Notes: generated by a model not told the origin, from the letters alone. A stretch of DNA of 64,000 nt from Candidatus Latescibacterota bacterium (GCA_965204725.1 OZ242005.1:3456001-3520000), one strand, 5' to 3'; positions 4,968 to 53,942 are shown, numbered from the stretch's first letter. A program made the numbers and translations.

Positions 4968-6014
4968 ATGGAGAACTTGACAGTGCCTAATCCTAAAACA
5001 GTAGAGGAACTGCAGGAGAAAGCTGCAATTTATTGGCCATCTGAAATCGCCAAGCAAGAGAAGAGTTCTAGTATTATTCCATTGCTCCTTAAAACACAAG
5101 ACAGTTTTATAAGCGTACTCCATCTTGCATCTAAAGACCCTTATGATTGGACTAAAATTTTAGATTTTGTTGAAGATCTCTATCCAAACCTTTTTCTAAA
5201 ACATCTTTGTATTTTATCCGACATCGGCGGAGAAAACTTAAAACGCTTTGCAGCAGACCTTCCGAATAAATTTAAGTGTGAGGATTTCAGATTTAACTTT
5301 CGTGGCAAAAATTACGATTCTAAGATGGAATCTCTTTTTTCTGGCAAGAAATGGAGTAATTCCAGCCTAGGACTTGATGGAGAAGGTCTCCAAAGACGTT
5401 TTGGCCTTACAGACGCCATTATTGATGTAAGTACCCTGATATTATTTGGCAGTTTGTCAACTAATGACTTCTTGCCAGAAGAAGTCGAAGATAAATGTAT
5501 TATCGGTTCAATGCTCGGCGACAGGTCGAGATTGGAAAAATACATTAAAGAACGATATATTTGGGTCAGTCGAATTACTGGAGGAGCAACGTCCAATAGA
5601 ATGGGACATCTCGCTCAGAATTATGTAAAAGAGCGATTGGCCCAATATCTCCCAAGTTGGAATTTTTCACAAACTACGATTCCAGGCGTCAGTCAAAATG
5701 AGGGTAGAACAGATATAAAATTTGACATCGTAGGAAAAAGCCCTAGTGGTAATTATTGGGGAATTGAAGTAAGTTTCCAATTTACGACAAACAGTGTAGT
5801 AGAAAGAAAAGCCAAACTTGCCCCTGATAGACAAAGGCTTCTTCGTGAAAAAGGGCATAAAATTGCGTATGTAGTTGATGGTGCCGGTAATTTTGAACGT
5901 CGATCTTTTGTGAAGGACCTAATCGACTACAGCGACTGTATTATCAACTTTAGCGACAACGATATTAGACGTCTTGCAGAAACTATGGAAGGAGACGATG
6001 AAAATGGCTCATAG
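4968..6014 (+). CDS. type II restriction endonuclease, BanI/HgiCI-like
   Basis: Motifs SIIPLL..QD.FIS, PNLFLKHL, KERYIWVSRITGG, FD..EVSFQFTTNSVVERKA and DGAGNF match R.BanI as I recall it; low GC. Confidence 0.8.
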   Translation: MENLTVPNPKTVEELQEKAAIYWPSEIAKQEKSSSIIPLLLKTQDSFISVLHLASKDPYDWTKILDFVEDLYPNLFLKHLCILSDIGGENLKRFAADLPNKFKCEDFRFNFRGKNYDSKMESLFSGKKWSNSSLGLDGEGLQRRFGLTDAIIDVSTLILFGSLSTNDFLPEEVEDKCIIGSMLGDRSRLEKYIKERYIWVSRITGGATSNRMGHLAQNYVKERLAQYLPSWNFSQTTIPGVSQNEGRTDIKFDIVGKSPSGNYWGIEVSFQFTTNSVVERKAKLAPDRQRLLREKGHKIAYVVDGAGNFERRSFVKDLIDYSDCIINFSDNDIRRLAETMEGDDENGS

Positions 6015-7758
6015 GAGTGAAAACTGCAAACCTCTAGATATATCAACAAGGGCATTTGCAGATTTTCAAAAATTATCGTCAAAGTCATCACGTCCAGATG
6101 TATGGCTTTTCCATTTGACTACAGAAGTCGATTTCGACGATAAAGTTTCTATGGAATTTTTTAATCAAGATTTTGACGGTTTTCTTGAAAAATTGCCTGA
6201 AGAAAGTACAATTTGTTTTTTAACAAACCCTCACACAGCTTGCTATGTAATAGAAAAACTTCAGAACCGCGTCAATTTCAAACTTTGGATTGCTGTCAAA
6301 CGGAAGAAAAAGATACTGAGATTGGACGCTTTACCAGATGACCATATTGCTCTTTTAGTTTTTACCCGTTACAAAGATTCTTTAAGACACAACAAGACTC
6401 AAATAGAATATACGTACTGTCCTGCCTGCAAGAAAACAACAAAGGACTACGGCGGCAAGAAACATATTTATAGCCCCTATGGGACGCTTATGTCTGATAT
6501 TTGGCGAGACATTTCTTATGATAATGACGCAGCACCAAGAGCTATTCTGAGTAGGCTAAAGGACCTCTTTGGACACGAACCTTATCGCGAACTGATTTAC
6601 TGCGATGTCAGGAACTTTCTTACATGTTCCAACAAGAGAAAATTCCACTCTTCAAATGGAATAATTAATAACCCCGGCGAGAGTCGTTTACTTAATGGAG
6701 ATTGTTTAGATGTCATTAAAACTATACCTGAAAATTCTGTAGATTTTATTTTTGCTGATCCTCCATATAATATAAAAAAGAAATATGATAACTGGAATGA
6801 CGCCCAAGATATTAGTAATTACTTTTCATGGTGTGACCAATGGATAGCTGAATCAGCTAGAGTCTTAAAGCCCGGTCGGACTTTTGCAATTATAAATATC
6901 CCCCTCTGGATCGTCAGGCATTTTTCGTTCGCGAAAAGCATTTTAGACTACCAAGATTGGATAGTTTGGGAGGGATTGAGCTTACCCGTCAGAAAAATTA
7001 TGCCGGCACACTACGGAATAATTTGCTTTAGTAAAGGTCGGCCAATCGAAATTGCCAATCACGAGAAGAAAGCCAGTTGGACAACTCCCCAAGACTTCAT
7101 GAGCCTCAAACCATGGTATTGTGTTAGAACCTCTTGTATCAAGAAGAGAAATATAAACAAAATTACCGACCGGCAGCCGATTGGAAATTTGTGGTGGGAC
7201 ATCCATAGACTAAAACACAATTCAAAAAGAGTTGATCACCCATGTCAACTACCTCCATCATTGATGAGACGACTTATCCATACCTTTACCAAAGTAGGAG
7301 ATCTCGTTTTAGATCCTTTTAATGGTGCCGGTACAACAACCTTAACATCGGAAATGCTTGGAAGAAAATTTATTGGAATTGAACTGTCAAATAAATATCA
7401 TGCAATTGCCGAACAGAGACATTTAGAGCTGCAAAAAGGGAGGGATCCGTTTGCAAAAAATGGCACTACTCCAAAAGCAAAGAATAGCAGAGTTGCAAGA
7501 CTACAAAAACAGAAGTATGAAGTACCCAAAAAAACACTACAGATCGAAGTCAAGAAGATCGCGATCAAACTGGAACGCAGGCCCACTAGAGAAGATATTA
7601 TTAGACTCAGCAAATACCCAATTCGTTATTTTGACGAATACTTCATCGACTGGGGAGAGGTGTGTAGTGCCGTTGGCGACAAAGGAATGACTGAAAACTT
7701 CTCTCAATCCATTAGCAATCAACCAGATGATCAACAGATGGAACTCTCTTTTAGATAG
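5998..7758 (+). CDS. beta-class N4/N6 DNA methyltransferase with N-terminal extension and C-terminal helical repeat
   Basis: DPPY precedes HPCQLP and LDPFNGAGTT; overlaps the endonuclease stop; low GC. Start is 5998 or 6004. Confidence 0.88.
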   Translation: MKMAHRSENCKPLDISTRAFADFQKLSSKSSRPDVWLFHLTTEVDFDDKVSMEFFNQDFDGFLEKLPEESTICFLTNPHTACYVIEKLQNRVNFKLWIAVKRKKKILRLDALPDDHIALLVFTRYKDSLRHNKTQIEYTYCPACKKTTKDYGGKKHIYSPYGTLMSDIWRDISYDNDAAPRAILSRLKDLFGHEPYRELIYCDVRNFLTCSNKRKFHSSNGIINNPGESRLLNGDCLDVIKTIPENSVDFIFADPPYNIKKKYDNWNDAQDISNYFSWCDQWIAESARVLKPGRTFAIINIPLWIVRHFSFAKSILDYQDWIVWEGLSLPVRKIMPAHYGIICFSKGRPIEIANHEKKASWTTPQDFMSLKPWYCVRTSCIKKRNINKITDRQPIGNLWWDIHRLKHNSKRVDHPCQLPPSLMRRLIHTFTKVGDLVLDPFNGAGTTTLTSEMLGRKFIGIELSNKYHAIAEQRHLELQKGRDPFAKNGTTPKAKNSRVARLQKQKYEVPKKTLQIEVKKIAIKLERRPTREDIIRLSKYPIRYFDEYFIDWGEVCSAVGDKGMTENFSQSISNQPDDQQMELSFR

Positions 7759-14966: not shown

Positions 14967-15125
14967 CAGTACCTCCGTTAGTAACCAATGGTGCTAGTGT
15001 TTTATAATCCGAACTCCGCGATAGACGCCGTGGTCGCGGGGCCGCTCCGTAGCTGAAAACCCTCGTAGCCGCTCCGCGCTTTGGCAAGCTGGCGAGCACG
15101 AGCAGGCTCGCGGCTTATAGCCGTT

Positions 15126-15276
15126 GCCAGCGGCGTTGCGGCTGGCGCGGCGTCATTATTGATAAAACGGCATAATTATCGGCGGTTTTTCCATCGAGGA
15201 TCGTCGATCTACCGCGAATTGGCCCTTTTTCGGCATAATTATCAAGTTTTTGTGGTAAGCCAGCGGCGTTGCGGCT
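15126..15276. repeat. nested direct repeats (A-B-B-A) upstream of the LRR gene
   Basis: GCCAGCGGCGTTGCGGCT at 15126 and 15259; CGGCATAATTATC at 15168 and 15231. Confidence 0.75.
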
Positions 15277-15517
15277 TGTGAACCAACTCTGCGGCTCCCT
15301 ATATTGCCCGGCGCCGCGGCAACGCCCTGCTTGGAGCAAGGAAAGGCTAAGGATGGCTACCGCTTGGGGAGGGCGTTGGCGTGGCACACACTCCACTGAA
15401 GGGAGGTTTAGCTATGCTGCCGATTGACAGACTGCCAACCGCTCCCTACCTAACAGTCTCGTATCCTTCGGCGTACTCAAGACGGGTGCGCCGTTCACCC
15501 AACAAGGAGATACTCCT

Positions 15518-16345
15518 ATGTTTAAGTCTTTCAAAAACCTGCTTGGCCTTAGCCTGCTGGCTTTCTTCGGCGTTTGGATGGGGTGCTCGTCCGACTCCTC
15601 GCCCGTCAGTCCTTCAAACAAAGCCGTGACGGACGATGACGGATCAGCAACACAAGTATCGACGTTTTCGACCGATGTTTCCATTCCTGACGACAGTCTA
15701 AGGGTAGCGGTTACTCAAGGACTCTGGGCTTTGGTGGCAGAAGGGAAAATCGACATTCCTACAGGGACAAACCCGCTTACAACGGCAAACCTTGCAAAGC
15801 TAGAAACGCTTACCGCTAGCGGCAAAGGGATTGTGAATTTGAGCGGCCTTGAGCACGCTACCGACTTGAAAAGCCTGAACCTAAACGGGAACAACGTTGA
15901 GGACCTAGCGCCTTTGGCCAATCTGACCAAGTTGGAATATCTGAGCTTGGAAAATAATCTCATTCCCCAAACGGGTTATTCTCATTTGGCTAATCTGACC
16001 AAGTTGACAAATCTTAGGATAGGCGGCCACAGAAACGCCGACATTGGCAGCGACACCCTAGAGGTGGTGGTTGAGAACATGACCAAGTTGACCGCTCTAA
16101 AGGTGAACCACATGGGGCTTACGGATATTTCTTTTTTGGAAAAGGAAAATCTGAAAGAGTTGCGATACTTAAACCTAAATGGCAACCGGGAGATTACGAA
16201 TCTCAAACCGCTTGCTTGTCTGCCGAATCTGAACGATTTGCGCGTAGAGAGGGTTGGTGCTGCTTACAACACCGTTACCGGCGAGGTAAATAAACTTCTC
16301 CTATTCTTGATAGGGGAAGGGGTATATGTAGATTACATTACTTAG
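15518..16345 (+). CDS. internalin-like leucine-rich-repeat lipoprotein
   Basis: Lipobox-like WMGC; IPD.SLR cap; LxxLxxLxLxxN repeats (LANLTKLEYLSLENN); AAGGAG RBS. Confidence 0.88.
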   Translation: MFKSFKNLLGLSLLAFFGVWMGCSSDSSPVSPSNKAVTDDDGSATQVSTFSTDVSIPDDSLRVAVTQGLWALVAEGKIDIPTGTNPLTTANLAKLETLTASGKGIVNLSGLEHATDLKSLNLNGNNVEDLAPLANLTKLEYLSLENNLIPQTGYSHLANLTKLTNLRIGGHRNADIGSDTLEVVVENMTKLTALKVNHMGLTDISFLEKENLKELRYLNLNGNREITNLKPLACLPNLNDLRVERVGAAYNTVTGEVNKLLLFLIGEGVYVDYIT

Positions 16346-16382
16346 CCCCATGCAGTAGATCGTCCTCTACGCAGAGGACGCC

Positions 16383-16419
16383 CAACGCCCCGTTGCCGCT
16401 TGCCGGTGACGGGGCGTTG
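16383..16419 (+). terminator. stem-loop after the LRR gene
   Basis: CAACGCCCCG...CGGGGCGTTG inverted repeat; weak U tract. Confidence 0.55.
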
Positions 16420-16468
16420 CTATGCCGCTCCAATACGCCGCTCGCTGGCGTCCGCGCATCATAGACCA

Positions 16469-16707
16469 TTGACCGCCCCCGGCGCACGGGCGATATTGGC
16501 AATCCTGTCCTTGAGAGAGACAGGGTTAGGCTGGCGGTTAGTATCCGCGACCGCCGACTAAGCCTAGCTAGCGCATTGCGGCTTGATTTATTGGCGGTGG
16601 AAACCGGATGCGCGAAAATGAATAAGCGGCGTTGGTTGGGCCGATTGCGTAAGCGCGGCCACCGGGTCTAACATCCCCGGCTTCTTGGGCCAACGCCGCG
16701 CTTTTTT
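16469..16707 (+). ncRNA. putative promoter plus structured RNA/leader, long copy (C4/CI-like three-way junction ending in a T tract)
   Basis: TTGACC-N17-GATATT, three hairpins (16501-16614), then a junction closed by GCGGCGTTGGTT/GGCCAACGCCGC and TTTTTT. Duplicated at 17348-17479. Confidence 0.55.
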
Positions 16708-16753
16708 ATGGGGCTTGGCTTGGCACACACTTTCACAGACAGGAGCAAAGACG

Positions 16754-17335
16754 ATGCGGGTATTGAGTGGGTTGTTAATTGGCTTGGAGTTGGCAGCGAC
16801 GCCAGCGGATAGCACGGACGCCGCACCAGCGGATACGACGACGACGCCAGATTTGTCTTGTCTGTTTGGCCTCTTTGGAACTGAAGAAACCGATCATTGT
16901 CTGGAACAGCTGCAGGAACCAGAGGAACAGGAACCAGAGGAACAGGAACCAGAGGAACAGGAACCAGAGGAACAGGAACCAGAGGAACCAACAGCACCCA
17001 CAGACAACGCCGATGCGTTGGCACAGTTGCAGGCTGAGTTAGATGCGTTGCGGGGCGAGAATGACGCTTTACGGGGCGATCTAAGCGCGGCGCGTGACAG
17101 TCTTGCTTCTCGCACGGCTATCGGGGGAGGTCGGCAAGTAGTGCGCGATACGGTGCTAGTTTCGCACACGGATACGCTTTTGTTTTGCCCCCCAACGGAC
17201 CAAGAGCGGCGCGATCTATTTGACTTGTTCACGGGGGCGGCTGACGATACAACGAACAGCGAGGGATCGGCGGGTAAGGCTGGTTCGGTGCAGGTTGAAT
17301 CGTGGGGCGCGATTAAAGCCTTGATACAAGAGTAA
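16754..17335 (+). CDS. secreted acidic repeat/coiled-coil protein with C-terminal SWGAIK motif
   Basis: AGGAG RBS before ATG 16754; signal-like N-terminus; (QEPEE)5; coiled coil; ends VESWGAIKALIQE. Confidence 0.75.
   Translation: MRVLSGLLIGLELAATPADSTDAAPADTTTTPDLSCLFGLFGTEETDHCLEQLQEPEEQEPEEQEPEEQEPEEQEPEEPTAPTDNADALAQLQAELDALRGENDALRGDLSAARDSLASRTAIGGGRQVVRDTVLVSHTDTLLFCPPTDQERRDLFDLFTGAADDTTNSEGSAGKAGSVQVESWGAIKALIQE
16913..16987 (+). repeat. in-frame 15-bp tandem repeat x5
   Basis: Five perfect copies of CAGGAACCAGAGGAA. Confidence 0.95.
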
Positions 17336-17347
17336 CTCAATGAAATC

Positions 17348-17479
17348 TTGACCGCCCCCGCTCGCGGCGCGATATTGGCAATCCTGTAAATGAATAAGCG
17401 GCGTTGGTTGGGCCGATTGCGTAAGCGCGGCCGCCGGGTCGAACATCCCCGGCGCCTTGAACCAACGCCGCGCCTTTTT
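17348..17479 (+). ncRNA. putative promoter plus structured small RNA, short copy
   Basis: TTGACC-N17-GATATT; 12-bp P1 (17398-17409/17460-17471); P2 GGCCG/CGGCC with GTAA loop; P3 GCCGGG/CCCGGC; T tract. Confidence 0.55.
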
Positions 17480-17535
17480 GTGCTCGCTTGCCACCGCCAA
17501 ACGCCCCCAGCGAATAACGCGCCTTAGACTTTTAT

Positions 17536-17563
17536 ACTAACGATAATAGGCCTTATCGGGACT
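17536..17563. other. dif-like (Xer-type) 11-6-11 recombination site candidate
   Basis: ACTAACGATAA-TAGGCC-TTATCGGGACT: inverted arms with an ATAA-N6-TTAT core. Confidence 0.4.
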
Positions 17564-17803
17564 ACCCCTTGGCGGCACTCTTCGTCATCCACTCGTCCCG
17601 TCCGCCGTAAGCGGCAAACACGGCTTCGAGCAAGAGCCGCACGGCTTGGCCAAAGTAACGGCCCCGACGCCACGCCACGCCGATTTCGCGCTCAAAGGCT
17701 ACGCCGCGCACCTCTACGGTCTTGAGCGCACCGCTCGTTAGTATGAGATGTAGGGGTATTCTCTGAAGATGCCTTTAGACAGGCCCCGGGGCTAGCTGGC
17801 ATC

Positions 17804-18931
17804 CTAACAGCCTATCGGCAGCATCATTTGCGGGACTTCGCCGACCGTGCAGTCAGCGGATAAACTTTCACCGACCATGCCGTTTGGTTGCTCCCTGTAC
17901 TGAGCCACTAGCGTCGTGCCGTCGGCCTCGTCGTCAACTCCCGTAATTTCGTTTAAGAACAAGTCCTGTTCCTGAGCCGTCATTACCGGAAATCCGTAGT
18001 GGCGGCTCGCGTATTTTAACGGGCCGCTCTCTTCCGTCCGCGCAACGGCCCACTCCACGTGCCGGGCTAGCCGGGCGCGGTTGTACTCGTTGGCAACCGG
18101 AGGTGTGGAGCGCAGCAGGTTTTGCGCGACCGCCACCAACGTCTCGTCAATCTCCATGCCGACAGAATTTCTTCCTGCTGTTAGGGCGGCTGCGAGCGTC
18201 GTCCCGGTCCCGGCAAACGGGTCGAGCACCACATCCCCTTTGACAGAAAACATGCAGACGAGCCGGTAGGCCAACTCAAAAGGAAAGGCCGCGCTACGCT
18301 CGCGGGTCGGCCCATCCACAAGCCCTTGCGAAGTTCCCTTTACGTCGAACCACACATCCGAGAACCACACGTTGCGTTCCTCCCAGAAGAAGGCACTCTC
18401 GCGGCGGTTGGCTTTCTCAGCGACCGTTGTGAATGTTCGTCGCCGCCCTTTTCTAAGCACGAGAATGTACTCGTGCTCGTAGGTTATGTATGCTCCTACG
18501 GGCAACATCCCAGACCCCATAAATTTGTTGGGGGCGTTGGTCTGCTTGCGCCAGAGTATATCGGGCAAAGCGGCAAAACCGTTGTCGAGAAAATAGCTGA
18601 GTATGCGGGAGTGATTGGAGTATAGCTGGAAGTCGCCATCTATGGTTCGGGTGGCGTCGCCAATGTTGATACAGGCAATAGCCCCCGGCTTCATAACGCG
18701 GTCGCACTCCCGCCACACGGCATCGAGCAACTCGTGCATGAGCTTGAAAGCGTCCGGTCCATTGCCGCTCGACAGTTGCTCCCCAATGCGATAGTCTTGG
18801 AGCGCGAAAATATCATCCCACATTTCCACCATCGGATAGGGCGGCGAGGTGACGATCAAATCAACCGACTCATCCGCGATTCCGGCCATGGACTGGGCAG
18901 GGCCGCATATCAGCTTAGCGGTGGTCTGCAA
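17804..18931 (-). CDS. orphan beta-class DNA methyltransferase (probably N4-cytosine)
   Basis: VTSPPY, AAFP.ELAYRL, VLDPFAGTGTT; no adjacent nuclease. Confidence 0.88.
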   Translation of the reverse strand: MQTTAKLICGPAQSMAGIADESVDLIVTSPPYPMVEMWDDIFALQDYRIGEQLSSGNGPDAFKLMHELLDAVWRECDRVMKPGAIACINIGDATRTIDGDFQLYSNHSRILSYFLDNGFAALPDILWRKQTNAPNKFMGSGMLPVGAYITYEHEYILVLRKGRRRTFTTVAEKANRRESAFFWEERNVWFSDVWFDVKGTSQGLVDGPTRERSAAFPFELAYRLVCMFSVKGDVVLDPFAGTGTTLAAALTAGRNSVGMEIDETLVAVAQNLLRSTPPVANEYNRARLARHVEWAVARTEESGPLKYASRHYGFPVMTAQEQDLFLNEITGVDDEADGTTLVAQYREQPNGMVGESLSADCTVGEVPQMMLPIGC

Positions 18932-18953: not shown

Positions 18954-21488
18954 CTAGAGATCAAAGGTGTATTTCCCGTACCAGAACGCGCCGCCAAAGC
19001 CATAGGGACTGTGCTCGCCAAATGGTCTGCCGAGGCCGGTTGCGGGATCCTCGCCGGCGATCTCGTTTTCGTAATTCGTCGGCTCGGTGTTGAGGACATT
19101 TTGAACGCCGAGGGTGATTGTCGATCCAGTGCCGAGTGAAAAACTGGATTCGAGGTCGAGCAACAACGCACGGCCAAAAACTTGGTGGCCCCAATCCCAT
19201 TCGTCCCACGAACCGTAATAACTGACGCGGCCCAACACACGCCAATTATCAGTTGGGGCGTGCATCAGGGTCACATTTGCGCGGTGCCTAGGGAGCCCCT
19301 TTTCCAAGAGCGTGATGCGCTTTTGATTGACCAAGGTTTCGTCGTATTCGGTGACATCGGTCTGGGTGAAATTATACGCGAGGCTCAGTTCTCCTTTGGA
19401 CCCAAACGGCGCGGTGAGAACGACATCGATCCCTTGGGTGCGCGTTGCAAAATTATTGGTAAAGAAGCGGAACTCTTGCAGATTGGTGATGCCTGCAACG
19501 CGCAGTTGTTCTATTGGTGCGTCGTCGAGTTCACTGAGCTTAAAGTCCTGCGAGGTCGTCAGGCGATCCTCCACCACAATATTGAAATAGTCGAGCGTGA
19601 CATGGACGGGATAGCTGGGAACCGCCACGACGAGGCCAGCCGACATATTGATCGATTTTTCCGGCTCCAGCACATCGCCCCCCACCAATTTCGCGGCCGG
19701 ATGCGTTGAGGGAATCGTGGCTTTATTGACCAAAATGAGATTGCCTTCGTCATCTTCGCCGACCCCCGTCGTCTCGTTATAGGCATTTTGTTGCCCGGGC
19801 GTGGGCGCTCTAAAGCCCGTGCTGAACGAGCCGCGCACTCTCACATTCTCGTTGATCCCGTAGTTGGTCGCCAACTTGTAATTGGTCGTGGCACCAAATC
19901 CCTCGAAATTTTCAAAGCGCACCGCACCGCCGAGCAACCAGTTGTCCTGCGGGTTCCATTCCGCATCGCCATAAATCGCCCAGTTGGACCGACTCCACGC
20001 CCCGGCGGCAACATCGCTGAACCCCGGGAACCCATTGGAACTCGGCAGAAAACCATAGCGCGCCAGCGAGCCTACTTCATAAGACTTTGGCTCGCCGCTT
20101 ACGATTTCAAACCTTTCAATGCGATATTCAAGCCCGCTGGCAAAGAACAGCCGCTCGCTAAGTGGATAGATCACATCGAGATTGAAATTGGTATCGGTCT
20201 GGATGTACGCGCCCGGATCAAACGAGGTGGGGGTGTTGGGGCCTAGGGACGCATTGATGGTTCGGTTGATAAAAAAATCGGTTTCGTGACGCCCATAAGA
20301 CGCGCTGAGGTCCCATGCCAACAGCGATTTCGTGCCCTTAATCCCGGCCAACAAGGCGCGATCTTGCGTGGTCGCGCCAAACCGAGGCGTGAAACCATTG
20401 GGAAACATTTCTTGGAAGGTGAACAGCCCCGGATCGTCGAAAACCTTTTTCAGGGAATCTGGCTGCGGCACATCGTTGACGATGGGCACTACGGGCACCT
20501 CGCCGCCGCTTAAACTGCCAATGAGCAGGGTCTCGCCCTTGTCAATGCTGTACACGCCGTATCGCTCATTGGGATTGCGGAAGTAAAACCCGCCCTCCAC
20601 TTCCTTGCTGGCAAAATTGCCGTGTCCGTACCATTCGATATGGTCGTTGATGAACGCGCCGTAATTGGCAAAGAGTTTCACGTCATTGCGAACAATGGGC
20701 TGCCCCCACGGCTGGGCCGGATCAGCTATATCCTTGCCCAGATCGATTAGGCGCGCAGCATCGGCGCGTTGCACCGAGCGGTCCGTCTCATCCGCGTTGC
20801 CATACTCCGCGCTGAGGTTTGCCCACGCCTGATCGCTGCCCAAGCCAACATTGCCCGCGACGCTGTATGTAAATCCATCGCCCGCTTGGAAAATACCGGG
20901 TTTGATTTGAAAAGACGCGCCTTGGTACTTGTTCTTGAGCTGGAAGTTCATCACCCCGGCAATGGCGTCAGAGCCGTATTGCGCCGAGGCGCCGTCGCGC
21001 AGCACTTCCACGCGCTTCAATGCAATGGCCGGGATCGGAGATATGTCAGGGCCTTGCGCCGCATCGGATACGCCCGTGGGCCACCATGCGATCACAGACC
21101 CGCGGTGTCGGCGTTTGCCATTGACGAGTACTAAAGTGTGGTCGGGTGCCAGTCCGCGCAGGTTGGCTGGGCGGACAAAGGTCGCAGCATCGCTGATCGG
21201 CTGGATATTGACATTGTAGGATGGCACGACATTTCTCAGCAGATCGGGCAAATCCGAACCGCCCTGCTTGACGAAATCTTCGCCAGTGACCACGTCGATG
21301 GGGACGGCCGACTCGGCGACGGAACGCGGCTGGGCGCGCGATCCCGTCACCACCAATTCATCAAACTCAACCAATTGTTCGAGAATATCCGAAAACTCGG
21401 TCGCGGTGGTATCCGCGCTTTCCTGCGCGCTGGCAATGTTGCTCGCAGCAAGCGCGACGATGAGGGCGAAAGGGTACTTGTGCCGCAT
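18954..21488 (-). CDS. TonB-dependent receptor
   Basis: Signal peptide, ELVVTGSR TonB box, LVLVNGKRR, RVEVLRDGASAQYGSDAIAGVMN plug, aromatic C-terminus; AAGGAG RBS before 21488. Confidence 0.93.
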   Translation of the reverse strand: MRHKYPFALIVALAASNIASAQESADTTATEFSDILEQLVEFDELVVTGSRAQPRSVAESAVPIDVVTGEDFVKQGGSDLPDLLRNVVPSYNVNIQPISDAATFVRPANLRGLAPDHTLVLVNGKRRHRGSVIAWWPTGVSDAAQGPDISPIPAIALKRVEVLRDGASAQYGSDAIAGVMNFQLKNKYQGASFQIKPGIFQAGDGFTYSVAGNVGLGSDQAWANLSAEYGNADETDRSVQRADAARLIDLGKDIADPAQPWGQPIVRNDVKLFANYGAFINDHIEWYGHGNFASKEVEGGFYFRNPNERYGVYSIDKGETLLIGSLSGGEVPVVPIVNDVPQPDSLKKVFDDPGLFTFQEMFPNGFTPRFGATTQDRALLAGIKGTKSLLAWDLSASYGRHETDFFINRTINASLGPNTPTSFDPGAYIQTDTNFNLDVIYPLSERLFFASGLEYRIERFEIVSGEPKSYEVGSLARYGFLPSSNGFPGFSDVAAGAWSRSNWAIYGDAEWNPQDNWLLGGAVRFENFEGFGATTNYKLATNYGINENVRVRGSFSTGFRAPTPGQQNAYNETTGVGEDDEGNLILVNKATIPSTHPAAKLVGGDVLEPEKSINMSAGLVVAVPSYPVHVTLDYFNIVVEDRLTTSQDFKLSELDDAPIEQLRVAGITNLQEFRFFTNNFATRTQGIDVVLTAPFGSKGELSLAYNFTQTDVTEYDETLVNQKRITLLEKGLPRHRANVTLMHAPTDNWRVLGRVSYYGSWDEWDWGHQVFGRALLLDLESSFSLGTGSTITLGVQNVLNTEPTNYENEIAGEDPATGLGRPFGEHSPYGFGGAFWYGKYTFDL

Positions 21489-51289: not shown

Positions 51290-51520
51290 TTACGAGGGCC
51301 AGAACCGCAAAACGATATTGAGTAACGCTAAACCCGAAGTCATCACTACAACCAGAATTTTGACGCTACCTTTGAGTTCGGCCATCTCGGCCTGCAATCG
51401 CGCCATATCATCCTTTAAGACCGCTCTCAACTCAGCAAGATCAGCTTTGGAAGCGAGATGATCGTACACGCCTTCCAGCCGGGCTAAACGCTCTTCAATC
51501 GTCGGGGGTACGGTAGCCAT
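51290..51520 (-). CDS. small coiled-coil protein with C-terminal TM helix, copy 1 (76 aa)
   Basis: MATVPPTIEERLARLEG...LASKADL...; near-identical to copies 2 and 3. Confidence 0.85.
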   Translation of the reverse strand: MATVPPTIEERLARLEGVYDHLASKADLAELRAVLKDDMARLQAEMAELKGSVKILVVVMTSGLALLNIVLRFWPS

Positions 51521-51544
51521 AGCGGTGCGCTCTTTTCGTTTGGA

Positions 51545-51760
51545 GTTTGGGGTGTACTTATGAACATATAGGACGAGGTTGAGCCGCGTCAACGAAAAAT
51601 CGACTTCTTGCTCGCGGTCTAAAAGTGCCTTAACCTAACGCGGTCAACCGTTCAACTTATTTTGAGCCCATCGCCCCGACCCTGACGCTAAACCCGCGTC
51701 CGTCCTCTACACCAACAAGCCCCGCCGAGACCATATCCCGGCGGGGCTTGTTGTCTTTTA
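51545..51760. repeat. duplicated non-coding cassette A (divergent promoters plus hairpin)
   Basis: High identity to 52441-52721. Minus strand TTGACG-N18-TATGTT; plus strand TTGCTC-N17-TAACCT; 15-bp stem at 51713-51753. Confidence 0.8.
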
Positions 51761-51801
51761 GCTCGCCCTCCTTGAATTACCTTTTTAGCTGAAACATGGG
51801 C

Positions 51802-52044
51802 TTACGAGGGCCAGAACCGCAAAACGATATTGAGTAACGCTAAACCCGAAGTCATCACTACCAGCAGAACTTTGACGCTACCCTTGAGTTCGGCAAGATC
51901 GGCTTTAAGGTCGCTCTCAACCCGCGCAATATCATCCTTTAAGACTGCTCTCAACTCAGCAAGGTCGGCTTTGGAAGCAAGATGATCATACACGCCTTCC
52001 AGCCGGGCTAAACGCTCTTCAATCGTCGGGGGCACGGTAGCCAT
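51802..52044 (-). CDS. small coiled-coil/TM protein, copy 2 (80 aa)
   Basis: AAGGAG RBS; same N- and C-terminal regions as the other copies. Confidence 0.85.
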   Translation of the reverse strand: MATVPPTIEERLARLEGVYDHLASKADLAELRAVLKDDIARVESDLKADLAELKGSVKVLLVVMTSGLALLNIVLRFWPS

Positions 52045-52099
52045 AATCGGTGCGCTCCTTTCATTGGGGTTTGATTGCCTTTTTAGCTTAGGCACGGGC

Positions 52100-52417
52100 T
52101 TACGAGGGCCAAAACCGCAAAACGATATTGAGTAACGCTAAACCGGAAATCATCACTACAACCAGAATTTTGACGCTCCCCTTGAGTTCGGCCATCTCGG
52201 CCTGCAATCGCGCAATATCCTCCTTGAGACTGCTCTCAACCCGCGCAATCTCGGCCTGTAATCGCGCCATATCCTCCTTGAGATCGCTCTCAACCCGCGC
52301 AATATCATCCTTTAAGACCGCTCTCAACTCAGCAAGATCGGCTTTGGAAGCAAGATGATCATACACGCCTTCCAGCCGGGCTAAACGCTCTTCAATCGTC
52401 GGGGGTACGGTAGCCAT
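52100..52417 (-). CDS. small coiled-coil/TM protein, copy 3 (105 aa)
   Basis: AAGGAG RBS; expanded internal repeats. Confidence 0.85.
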   Translation of the reverse strand: MATVPPTIEERLARLEGVYDHLASKADLAELRAVLKDDIARVESDLKEDMARLQAEIARVESSLKEDIARLQAEMAELKGSVKILVVVMISGLALLNIVLRFWPS

Positions 52418-52440
52418 AGCGTTGCGCTCCTTTCGTGGGG

Positions 52441-52721
52441 GTTTGGGGTGTATAGGGTGGGGTTACTATGAACATACAGGACGAGGTTGAGCAACGTCAA
52501 TGAAAAATCGACTTTTTGCTCGCGGTCTAAAATCGCCTTAACCCAACGCGGTCAACCGTTCAACTCGTGAGTACGGCGACCGCACAGATGAAGTTGGCGG
52601 TCGGCTGCGTCGCCCGTAACATTTCGCGCCCATCGCCCCGGCCCTGACGCTAGCCCGCGTCCATCCCCTACACCCACAAGCCCCGCCGAGACCATATCCC
52701 GGCGGGGCTTGTTGCCTTTTA
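52441..52721. repeat. duplicated non-coding cassette B
   Basis: Copy of 51545-51760 with an extra ~50-nt hairpin-forming insert (52566-52620). Confidence 0.8.
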
Positions 52722-52742
52722 ACGCACACTCACCGCACCGTT

Positions 52743-53942
52743 TCAGCCGAGCAACTCCCTCAGCCGACGCCCAATCTGCGCCGGCTCGCCCTCCTTGAGG
52801 CACATCGGCCCAAAAATCACAACCCCCTCGTACACATCTGTGGGGTTGGCGGCAATCTGCGGCTGGCCTTCCTGTAACGCCTTGACCAGTTCCAGCGCCG
52901 TCATGCCCGCGGCCTCCTCGTCGAGCACCAACCGTGCAGTCGGAATCTCGGTGCGCTTGCGGTCCGCTACCACCGCAATCTCAGCGTGTCGCAGCGCACC
53001 ACACGCAGCGACCAACTCCGCCATCAGCGCATACCAGCGCTGCCGCCGCGCCGCCGGGTCTTCGGCCACAAAAAGACGCAGCGCCTTCACCAACCCGGCG
53101 ATCTCCTCCTTGCCGACCTTGCAGGGCCGCCCAATGCCATGCTGCGGAGCACCGGGTAACTGCGACTTGTCGATCAAGCTCGCCGGCGGGTCCCACAGCT
53201 CGGGCATCACGTCGAGGTCTTGGTGTTGCAGCGCGGCCGCAGCGATCAAATCGCGCCGGCCGCACAAAATCCCCGAAGCCTGCGGCCCGCCGATGGCCTT
53301 GCCACCGCTAAAGGCAACCAGATCGGCCCCAGCGGCAATAAAGCACTGCAAGTTGCTCGCCGGCGGCAACTGCCCGGCCGCATCCACAATCACCGGCACC
53401 CCTCCCTTGCGCGCCGCGGCCACCACTACCTCCAGCGACGGCTGCGTGTGCGCGTACGCCACGTACACTATGGCCGCCGTCCGCTCGCTAATCGCCGCCT
53501 CAATCTCCCAGCCTTCCGCATCGCGCACACCCGCCCCGGAAAAGCGGTCGGCGATCCCCACCTCCACCAACTCAATCCCCACCGAGCGCACCGCGTGGTC
53601 GTAGAAGTTCCGATGGCTGCGCGCCATGATCACTTCGCTCTTCATCCCAGCCGTATCCGGCAAGCGGTTCATCTTCCCCGGGTCCAATCCGGTCACACAA
53701 GCGGCCGTTCCCAGCAACAAGCCCGCCGCGGCCCCACTCGTCACATACCCGGCCTCCGCGCCCGTGATCTCGGCGATCACTTCCCCGGCCCGCGCCTGCA
53801 TTTGCGCTATATCCACGCAGCACTCCGAAGCCTGCCGCATGGCCTCGGCCACCTCCGGGTGCATAACGGACCCACTCAACCGCGTGGCCGGCCCTACGGC
53901 GTTGATAATCGGCTCGACGCCTAGCTCTTGATATATATTCAT
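52743..53942 (-). CDS. SelA-like PLP-dependent enzyme (DgaE-like)
   Basis: IY..LGV.PIINA.G..T.L.GS, VTSGAAAG, VDAA, FSGGKAIGGPQ, IGR..KVGKEEI. Confidence 0.85.
   Translation of the reverse strand: MNIYQELGVEPIINAVGPATRLSGSVMHPEVAEAMRQASECCVDIAQMQARAGEVIAEITGAEAGYVTSGAAAGLLLGTAACVTGLDPGKMNRLPDTAGMKSEVIMARSHRNFYDHAVRSVGIELVEVGIADRFSGAGVRDAEGWEIEAAISERTAAIVYVAYAHTQPSLEVVVAAARKGGVPVIVDAAGQLPPASNLQCFIAAGADLVAFSGGKAIGGPQASGILCGRRDLIAAAALQHQDLDVMPELWDPPASLIDKSQLPGAPQHGIGRPCKVGKEEIAGLVKALRLFVAEDPAARRQRWYALMAELVAACGALRHAEIAVVADRKRTEIPTARLVLDEEAAGMTALELVKALQEGQPQIAANPTDVYEGVVIFGPMCLKEGEPAQIGRRLRELLG

Follow-up and report, generated by a model that had tools for sequence, protein, structure and literature searches.

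A duplicated, branched RNA element at both ends of one gene looks like a new pair of small regulatory RNA genes and not like a relative of the phage C4/CI RNAs

What kind of element joins a promoter-like sequence to a branched RNA fold, and stands on the same strand both before and after a single gene? The case examined here spans positions 16469-17482 of the window, by which we mean the whole 64 kb stretch of DNA that was analysed. The original prediction took the element for an RNA-only switch, possibly derived from a phage and akin to the C4 RNA of phage P1 and the CI RNA of phage P4, that would control a secreted protein by premature termination. The duplication on which it was built is confirmed, each copy carrying a promoter-like piece, a junction and a T tract. 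The answer that we reach as to its nature is a different one: the element looks like a new pair of small regulatory RNA (sRNA) genes and not like a relative of the phage C4/CI RNAs. The parts are listed below in window coordinates; P1, P2 and P3 are the stems of the three-way junction, and R1 is a covariance model built from both copies of the 95-nt module.

15518-16345, gene for an LRR lipoprotein, upstream of copy 1
16469-16508 and 17348-17387, + strand, part 1 of the repeat in its two copies, 40 nt, 33/40 identical
16616-16710 and 17388-17482, + strand, part 2 of the repeat in its two copies (three-way junction and T tract), 95 nt, 87/95 identical
16469-16497, + strand, promoter-like site of copy 1 (-35-like hexamer 16469-16474, 17-nt spacer, -10-like hexamer 16492-16497)
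16498-16508, + strand, copy 1 of the shared 11-nt tail at the putative start of the transcript, 11/11 identical between the copies
16509-16615, + strand, 107-nt segment found in copy 1 only (alignment, fold)
16504-16524, 16525-16568 and 16571-16613, + strand, hairpins H1 (which uses the shared tail), H2 and H3 of the predicted fold
16616-16710, + strand, copy 1 of the 95-nt module (alignment, fold, R1 at 121.8 bits)
16616-16625, + strand, A-rich single strand of copy 1 (predicted fold)
16626-16637 with 16688-16699, + strand, stem P1 of copy 1, 12 bp (predicted fold)
16639-16660, 16662-16680 and 16702-16707, + strand, stem P2 with its GUAA loop, stem P3 and T tract of copy 1
16711-16745, + strand, 35-nt motif shared with 15371-15405, ending in the Shine-Dalgarno sequence of the gene
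16754-17335, + strand, gene for a 193-aa protein (21 homologues, alignment)
17348-17376, + strand, promoter-like site of copy 2, starting 13 nt after the stop codon of the gene
17377-17482, + strand, putative RNA of copy 2, 11-nt tail plus 95-nt module (alignment, fold, R1 at 121.7 bits)
17398-17409 with 17460-17471, + strand, stem P1 of copy 2 (predicted fold)
17411-17432, 17434-17452 and 17475-17479, + strand, stem P2, stem P3 and T tract of copy 2

The repeat is direct, lies on the + strand and has two parts. In part 1, a 17-nt spacer separates a -35-like from a -10-like hexamer, and a tail of 11 nt comes last. Part 2 follows at once in the downstream copy, whereas the upstream copy has the 107 nt of 16509-16615 in between. 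The similarity between the copies begins exactly at the -35-like hexamer. Strong similarity stops at the T tract, and by our own reading of the alignment, about 20 nt of weak similarity follow. Searched for in the 64 kb with up to 3 mismatches allowed, a 17-mer from part 1 and a 23-mer of P2 are each found two times and no more, with 0.13 and 0.00 occurrences expected, and 0/100 shuffles reach a count of two. R1, run over the whole window with filters off, recovers the two copies at 121.8 and 121.7 bits. The next-best match has 22.3 bits and is copy 2 read on its reverse strand, and the remaining 19 window matches score at most 17.7 bits, those that were inspected or that coincide with a hairpin being simple hairpins. 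Further, decayed copies were considered at 15090-15330, where the scores are reached by 1/300 and 9/300 shuffles at a permissive gap cost; these are missed by both R1 and nhmmer and are suggestive only.

The minimum-free-energy and centroid folds of both 95-mers are the three-way junction that had been described, with a 12-bp P1, a GUAA-capped P2 and a P3. P1 has 8 G-C pairs in both copies, supplemented by 4 A-U pairs in copy 2 or by 2 A-U and 2 G-U pairs in copy 1. P2 is identical in the two copies and consists of 5+3 bp with a two-base bulge and the GUAA loop. The 9-nt loop of P3 is closed by a stem of 5 bp in copy 1 and of 6 bp in copy 2. On the 3' side of P1 come GC and six T's in copy 1, and GCC and five T's in copy 2. 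The two folds come to -42.4 and -46.0 kcal/mol (z about -2.9), values equalled in 0-1 of 200 shuffles. The reverse strands fold as well (z -3.5 vs -2.9 on the + strand), and therefore folding energies do not pick the strand.

The differences between the copies are more informative about the strand. Read on the + strand, each of the 25 predicted pairs can form in either copy (50/50 cells, three G-U pairs among them), against 46/50 cells on the - strand. Of the 8 differences in the module, 6 are unpaired and 2 fall at adjacent P1 positions, and no pair is broken. The latter two are the AA/GG difference in the 3' strand of P1, which gives U-A pairs in copy 2, U-G pairs in copy 1 and mismatches on the - strand; it thus pairs only on the + strand, as was originally noticed. 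In simulations with 8 random substitutions, all pairs are spared in 1-4% of trials, and with 6 random substitutions in 3-9%, the ranges reflecting the transition bias. This sparing gives modest support to a constraint on an RNA read from the + strand, and it is distinct from covariation. Two-sided compensatory changes between the copies number 0/25 pairs, since the comparison is confined to two copies and one near-identical strain. The 8% divergence of the module equals that of other duplicated noncoding pieces in the window, which are 90-92% identical. The copies may therefore be young, and the pair sparing may be partly luck.

Each copy has the anatomy of an sRNA gene, with a promoter-like site and a terminator-like end on the same strand and no translatable reading frame between them. 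Two frames, of 17 and 45 aa, begin in the tail, but neither is preceded by a Shine-Dalgarno sequence and their stops differ; a leader peptide, for which the Arg-rich 17-aa frame was the candidate, was rejected on that ground and on the loss of its stop in copy 2. Both promoter-like sites score 9/12 in a consensus scan. That scan reports three such sites in all within 15400-18000, two being those of the copies, and none between 16510 and the ATG of the gene, but sites of 9/12 are common by chance, with 1.1 expected per 2.6 kb. Judged from the position of the -10-like hexamer, transcription of copy 1 would start near 16501-16505. All 7 of the differences in part 1 lie in the spacer, and the hexamers, the 17-nt spacing and the 11-nt tail are unchanged. 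Such clustering has P = 0.001 if the differences are independent, and a single event could also have produced it.

At the other end, the element resembles an intrinsic terminator in having a GC-rich 12-bp helix followed within 2-3 nt by five or six T's (GC or GCC and then U6 or U5 in the RNA). It differs from a simple short-loop terminator in that the P1 loop is a 50-nt insert folding into two conserved hairpins, so that the putative terminator stem forms the base of a three-way junction. Terminator-like hairpins seen elsewhere in the window lack such branching. Our terminator scan requires a loop of 3-8 nt and cannot recognise branched stems, which is why the junctions are absent from its output. 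Counting against a terminator are the two nucleotides, GC, between P1 and the T tract. In another part of the window, small genes have a duplicated promoter-like site 40-54 nt ahead of them, and the gene ending at 52743 is followed at once by a conserved simple hairpin. The use of sigma-70-type promoters and of hairpin terminators by this organism is therefore plausible.

The gene between the copies has its ATG at 16754, an AGGAG 8 nt upstream (Shine-Dalgarno sequence at 16741-16745) and its stop at 17335. The T tract of the upstream copy ends at 16707, about 45 nt before the gene, in agreement with the original prediction. The gene is real and has 21 homologues, all of them derived from metagenomes and 51-97% identical. 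The protein has a short hydrophobic N-terminus, to judge from which it is probably secreted, then an acidic (QEPEE)5 repeat, a predicted long helix or coiled coil, and a conserved C-terminal domain of about 60 aa. In an alignment of the window protein with 20 homologues (P0010, whose N-terminal half is different, was left out), all 19 invariant columns fall within the last 62 residues; the number of QEPEE repeats and the N-terminus vary among the homologues. The 193-aa protein has no Pfam match and a poor AlphaFold2 model (pLDDT 56), and the protein atlas search with it gave no lead, the best score being 0.77.

The reading that we prefer, which we hold tentatively and at a little under an even chance, is that the element consists of two paralogous sRNA transcription units whose terminator stem closes the junction, copy 1 serving as the 5' leader of the gene and copy 2 sharing the terminator of the gene. 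The repeat, the fold, the promoter-like and terminator-like anatomy, the strand asymmetry and the absence of a known family are observed; firing of both promoters, termination at the T tracts and any regulation by the RNA are inferred. Each unit would start at a sigma-70-type promoter and end at an intrinsic terminator with P1 as its stem and P2 and P3 inside the terminator loop. The RNA from copy 2 would be some 95-100 nt long, the first 17 nt or so being a free 5' tail. Copy 1 would yield one of about 200 nt, comprising the tail, three extra hairpins and the junction, and would be at once a small RNA and the 5' leader of the gene. No other promoter is recognisable before the ATG, so transcripts reading through copy 1 would be the mRNA of the gene, and copy 1 may act as a leaky terminator in that leader. 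Copy 2 lies in the 3' flank of the gene, so its terminator would also end the gene's mRNA.

The main rival, itself rather unlikely, is that the copies are duplication debris: an ordinary terminator of an upstream gene was locally duplicated, the promoter-like site is incidental and no discrete sRNA functions here. Several features of the locus agree with this. Copy 2 stands where the terminator of the gene would be expected, 63-144 nt after the stop codon. The intergenic DNA of 14967-17500 is a patchwork of short repeats, and another locus in the window has duplicated promoter and terminator pieces at 90-92% identity. A fragment of a LysR-like gene (E 0.07) follows copy 2, and promoter-like sites of 9/12, as noted, arise by chance. 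Were the copies debris, they would be an ordinary by-product of the local duplications seen elsewhere in the window. Several features sit badly with it, however. The ordinary terminators of the window are simple hairpins, whereas this one has two extra hairpins, of which P2 has stayed identical. The similarity starts exactly at the -35-like hexamer, and the hexamers and their spacing have been kept though the spacer differs at 7/17 positions. A promoter 10-20 nt before a terminator on the same strand suits an sRNA gene better than it does chance placement. For the record, the upstream gene to which such a terminator would have belonged is the QEPEE-repeat gene in the case of copy 2 and the LRR unit in the case of copy 1.

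Rather less probable is that copy 1 is a cis-acting leader of the attenuator or riboswitch type, in which a signal sensed by the 107-nt segment and the junction would determine whether transcription stops at 16707 or reads through, copy 2 being the relic of a lost gene unit. The position of copy 1 directly upstream of the gene, with no promoter-like site between them, is what such a leader would require, and the 20 nt or so of weak similarity past the T tract are expected from duplication of a whole gene unit. The 107-nt segment itself folds with the shared tail into three hairpins (z -2.4). The original prediction had about 107 extra nucleotides with three hairpins, one of them GGAA-capped. 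The segment and the hairpins H1-H3 are there, but the GGAA-capped hairpin (16595-16606) is absent from the minimum-free-energy fold of the full-length RNA and comes up solely when a truncated transcript is folded. If the RNA ends ahead of the 3' strand of P1, the 5' strand of that stem is taken up in a helix between 16570-16592 and 16617-16637, the only alternative helix to sequester it, with the GGAA-capped hairpin at its tip. The segment also has a weak similarity of its own, of 16509-16559 to the 5' half of the junction.

The mutually exclusive terminator and antiterminator folds that such a leader needs are not found in copy 1, where the alternative helix is no better than its controls. 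Its pairing is equalled by 47/500 shuffled inserts and by 143/500 random genomic 107-mers, and its gain in free energy by 91/300 shuffles. The best fold that lacks P1 is 12.9 kcal/mol less stable than the full fold, which favours the terminator, and the predicted probability of the P1 pairs is 0.6-1.0 per pair. Nor does copy 2 behave as a leader. It has no room for an antiterminator and is free-standing, as had been stated, with no + strand reading frame of at least 60 aa on its 3' side; those present are of 45, 27 and 31 aa and either overlap the element or lie in a junk region, and the DNA that comes after copy 2 is convergent, on the - strand. The element is thus not always upstream of a gene, yet copy 2 keeps its promoter hexamers. 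No riboswitch family of Rfam matches. With an alternative helix at chance level, a stable P1 and copy 2 so placed, an attenuation switch is unsupported, and so is the RNA-only termination switch of the original prediction.

Among the regulatory options open to a pair of sRNA genes, the likeliest involves the shared tail, and we offer it as a lead only. The tail can pair, through 16503-16509 in copy 1 (7 bp) and 17382-17387 in copy 2 (6 bp), with the stretch 16738-16745, in which the Shine-Dalgarno sequence of the gene lies. Set beside 3000 random 40-mers of the window, the duplex energies are among the best 0.5-2.6%, a ranking to be read with the fact that this complementarity was picked out after several candidate pairings had been examined. 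Among 46 crudely called genes, the hexamer occurs within 25 nt upstream of the candidate start in one, namely this gene. The minimum-free-energy fold of 16501-16760 closes the long-range helix between the tail and the ribosome-binding site; otherwise, the tail of copy 1 is held in hairpin H1. In our own reading of the sequence, the 3' arm of H1 resembles the ribosome-binding region. If the two sRNA units work in this way, the tail would pair with the ribosome-binding site in cis in read-through transcripts and in trans when it comes from copy 2.

A stronger version would make the whole locus a self-contained, RNA-only cassette, in which sibling RNAs share a 5' anti-Shine-Dalgarno tail directed at the gene that they bracket, and a new RNA family is tied to a new family of secreted proteins. 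We regard this as improbable. In such a cassette, the tail of read-through copy 1 transcripts would close the helix onto the ribosome-binding site in competition with H1, the short copy 2 RNA, its tail free, would make the same pairing in trans, and the branched junction would serve as the terminator and as a module for stability or protein binding.

Very unlikely is an element acting at the DNA level, a recombination site or mobile repeat whose 135-bp direct repeats loop out the gene or form the ends of a small cassette. Repeats in the same orientation do flank a single gene, its family is variable in the N-terminus and in repeat number, and a DNA methylase gene and a gene fragment adjoin. 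But there are only two copies in 64 kb, the unit alignment finds no terminal inverted repeats at the unit ends, and the Pfam scan finds no integrase or transposase family among 50 window reading frames. The ordinary high-copy REP or MITE that the original prediction had named as telling against it is likewise not seen, R1 with filters off giving just these two copies in the 64 kb and the ends carrying no terminal inverted repeats. Three wobble pairs have been kept that are mismatched on the other strand, which argues for RNA rather than DNA. An integron attC-like site was also considered and rejected, the core-like words being in the wrong order and no integrase family being found.

In a collection of genome contigs, a 22-nt stretch of P2 used as the search pattern hit 13 loci, each in a different and unrelated taxon, and the match never extends beyond the 22-mer (best 17.7 bits, against 121.8 for the element); the source species itself was not matched by this pattern in the collection. 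For copies in metagenomes, spurious antisense reading frames over copy 1 and copy 2 were used as protein queries. These found one near-identical strain, P0022, which comes from a 718-nt contig and is 97% identical in the antisense reading, with no amino-acid change across copy 2, which implies that copy 2 is placed after the gene in this second strain as it is here. The exhaustive search returned P0022 and 7 weak multi-stretch matches in long proteins, which we took for low complexity. That one near-identical strain is all that these searches found suggests, as weak evidence, that the element is no high-copy repeat.

The element belongs to no known RNA family. Rfam 15 has 0 matches in the whole window at gathering score. 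With E values up to 10, the region 16300-17600 yields two chance-level matches only, both to other families, with E above 8 and off the junction: Bp1_684 at 12.7 bits (gathering score 44) and P6 at 9.7 bits (gathering score 50). The neighbouring intergenic region gives nothing in Rfam. ARAGORN finds 0 tRNA or tmRNA genes, and the idea that P3 is T-arm-like was dropped on the same result. The covariance search proposed with the original prediction, which was to include the C4 families, is covered by these Rfam runs and has no match on the element. The c4 antisense RNA (RF01695) is listed for Proteobacteria and phages (PMC2864571).

The phage connection fails equally on context. Neither 50,697 phage records nor 72,556 plasmids contain a blastn match to the element, and tblastn with the 193-aa protein finds nothing in these two collections. 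A Pfam scan of 50 distinct window reading frames (53 queries, three repeated) matched chromosomal housekeeping, transport and restriction-modification genes. No phage, integrase or transposase family was matched significantly, the viral-family matches being noise with E above 0.05. This agrees with the remark in the original prediction that the window has no phage genes, and it leaves the suggested phage origin with neither a DNA nor a protein-family match. For the loops, the + strand of 16469-17482 has no site complementary to the P3 loop; the best + strand duplexes are thousands of bases away, at 20211, 10371, 63621, 35661 and 31111. The element shares with P1 C4 and P4 CI its several stems, a comparable size (about 75 nt) and a place in a leader, and is unlike them in having no covariance-model match, no phage context and no complementarity to a loop target nearby. 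A phage-derived immunity RNA of the C4/CI kind, processed by RNase P from the leader and pairing through its loops within the same operon to bring about premature termination, has that general likeness only, fails on every feature that could be tested, and is hardly credible; the proposed kinship is unsupported.

The nearest known cases in the working that we propose, by analogy, are 5'-UTR sRNAs released by premature termination. Listeria Rli51 is a 5'-UTR sRNA upstream of the secreted protease gene mpl that is also trans-acting, with competing terminator and antiterminator folds reported (PMC11394854), and E. coli ChiZ and IspZ are sRNAs that arise from 5' UTRs by premature termination and are also trans-acting (PMC7815308). 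Like them, the present locus would place an intrinsic terminator and, before it, a structured RNA of some 100-200 nt with its promoter immediately ahead of a gene whose product is exported, and read-through would give an mRNA where termination gives a small RNA. It is unlike these cases in showing no kinship of sequence or structure and in having a second copy after the gene; the competing antiterminator fold reported for Rli51 was tested here and not found.

The duplicated state has parallels of another sort. Sibling, or paralogous, sRNAs are known, as are sRNAs at the 3' ends of mRNAs that have their own promoter and share the terminator of the mRNA. They come from model proteobacteria and firmicutes and depend on defined chaperones. 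The present units are like these in being two near-identical units with conserved promoter elements, copy 2 ending at what would be the terminator of the gene, and are unusual in that the siblings bracket one gene. If the pair is transcribed as we propose, it is an undescribed structured sRNA without an Rfam family, in a lineage known only from metagenomes. Two of its features would be uncommon: an intrinsic terminator whose stem closes a three-way junction, and siblings at both ends of a gene, so that the same RNA would be leader, terminator and possibly trans-regulator. The target would then be a conserved exported protein of unknown function.

The surroundings add some detail. Downstream of copy 2 and convergent with it are the possible LysR fragment and a gene for an N6/N4 DNA methylase. 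Upstream, the second occurrence of the 35-nt motif, at 15371-15405, precedes the LRR lipoprotein gene. Judged by eye, this motif fits a sigma-54-type promoter in its -24-like part and fails to do so in the -12 part. The local alignment score of the two occurrences is 33, against a maximum of 27 in 200 shuffles.

Several other features of the window bear on the duplicated RNA element and its surroundings or stand apart from them:
4968-7758, genes for a BanI-type restriction enzyme and for an N6/N4 DNA methylase
14967-15517, a long intergenic region preceding the LRR lipoprotein gene
16913-16988, a 15-nt tandem repeat encoding QEPEE five times
17524-17803 (- strand), short broken ORFs between copy 2 of the element and the methylase gene at 17804-18931
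51290-52731 (- strand), three paralogous small genes in tandem, with products of 100, 97 and 105 aa
60734-62641, the gene for a 635-aa protein with a FlgD Ig-like domain at its C-terminus

The tandem small genes are accompanied by three duplicated non-coding pieces: one of 99 nt with a promoter-like site (92% identical between copies), one of 78 nt with a terminator hairpin (90%) that, judged by eye, is kept in both copies, and one of 32 nt (91%). These duplications show that regulatory DNA is often duplicated locally in this genome. By inspection, the encoded proteins show heptad-like repeats, and their C-termini include a hydrophobic stretch; the one of the three scanned against Pfam had no match.

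Repeats also occur in the intergenic DNA upstream of the LRR lipoprotein gene. This region contains an exact 18-nt direct repeat, at 15126 and 15259 (133 nt apart), a 13-nt repeat, and at 15371-15405 a 35-nt motif that recurs at 16711-16745, just upstream of the QEPEE-repeat gene. Rfam matched nothing in this region, and decayed pieces of the duplicated RNA element may lie within it. Among homologues of the 193-aa QEPEE-repeat protein, the repeat varies in number and in sequence (QEPEE or VEEPE).

Between copy 2 and the methylase gene, the minus strand holds no ORFs other than the short broken ones, one of which looks like the terminal part of a LysR substrate-binding domain (E 0.07). P0022, a protein match to the antisense ORF over copy 2, suggests that a short AT-rich piece near 17525-17555 is absent from another strain.

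The restriction enzyme and methylase genes at 4968-7758 sit in DNA of low GC content, 41-48% versus about 60% elsewhere, and are probably an acquired restriction-modification island. Several large ORFs neighbouring the gene for the FlgD Ig-like protein had no Pfam family; their products and the 635-aa protein may be surface or secreted proteins.
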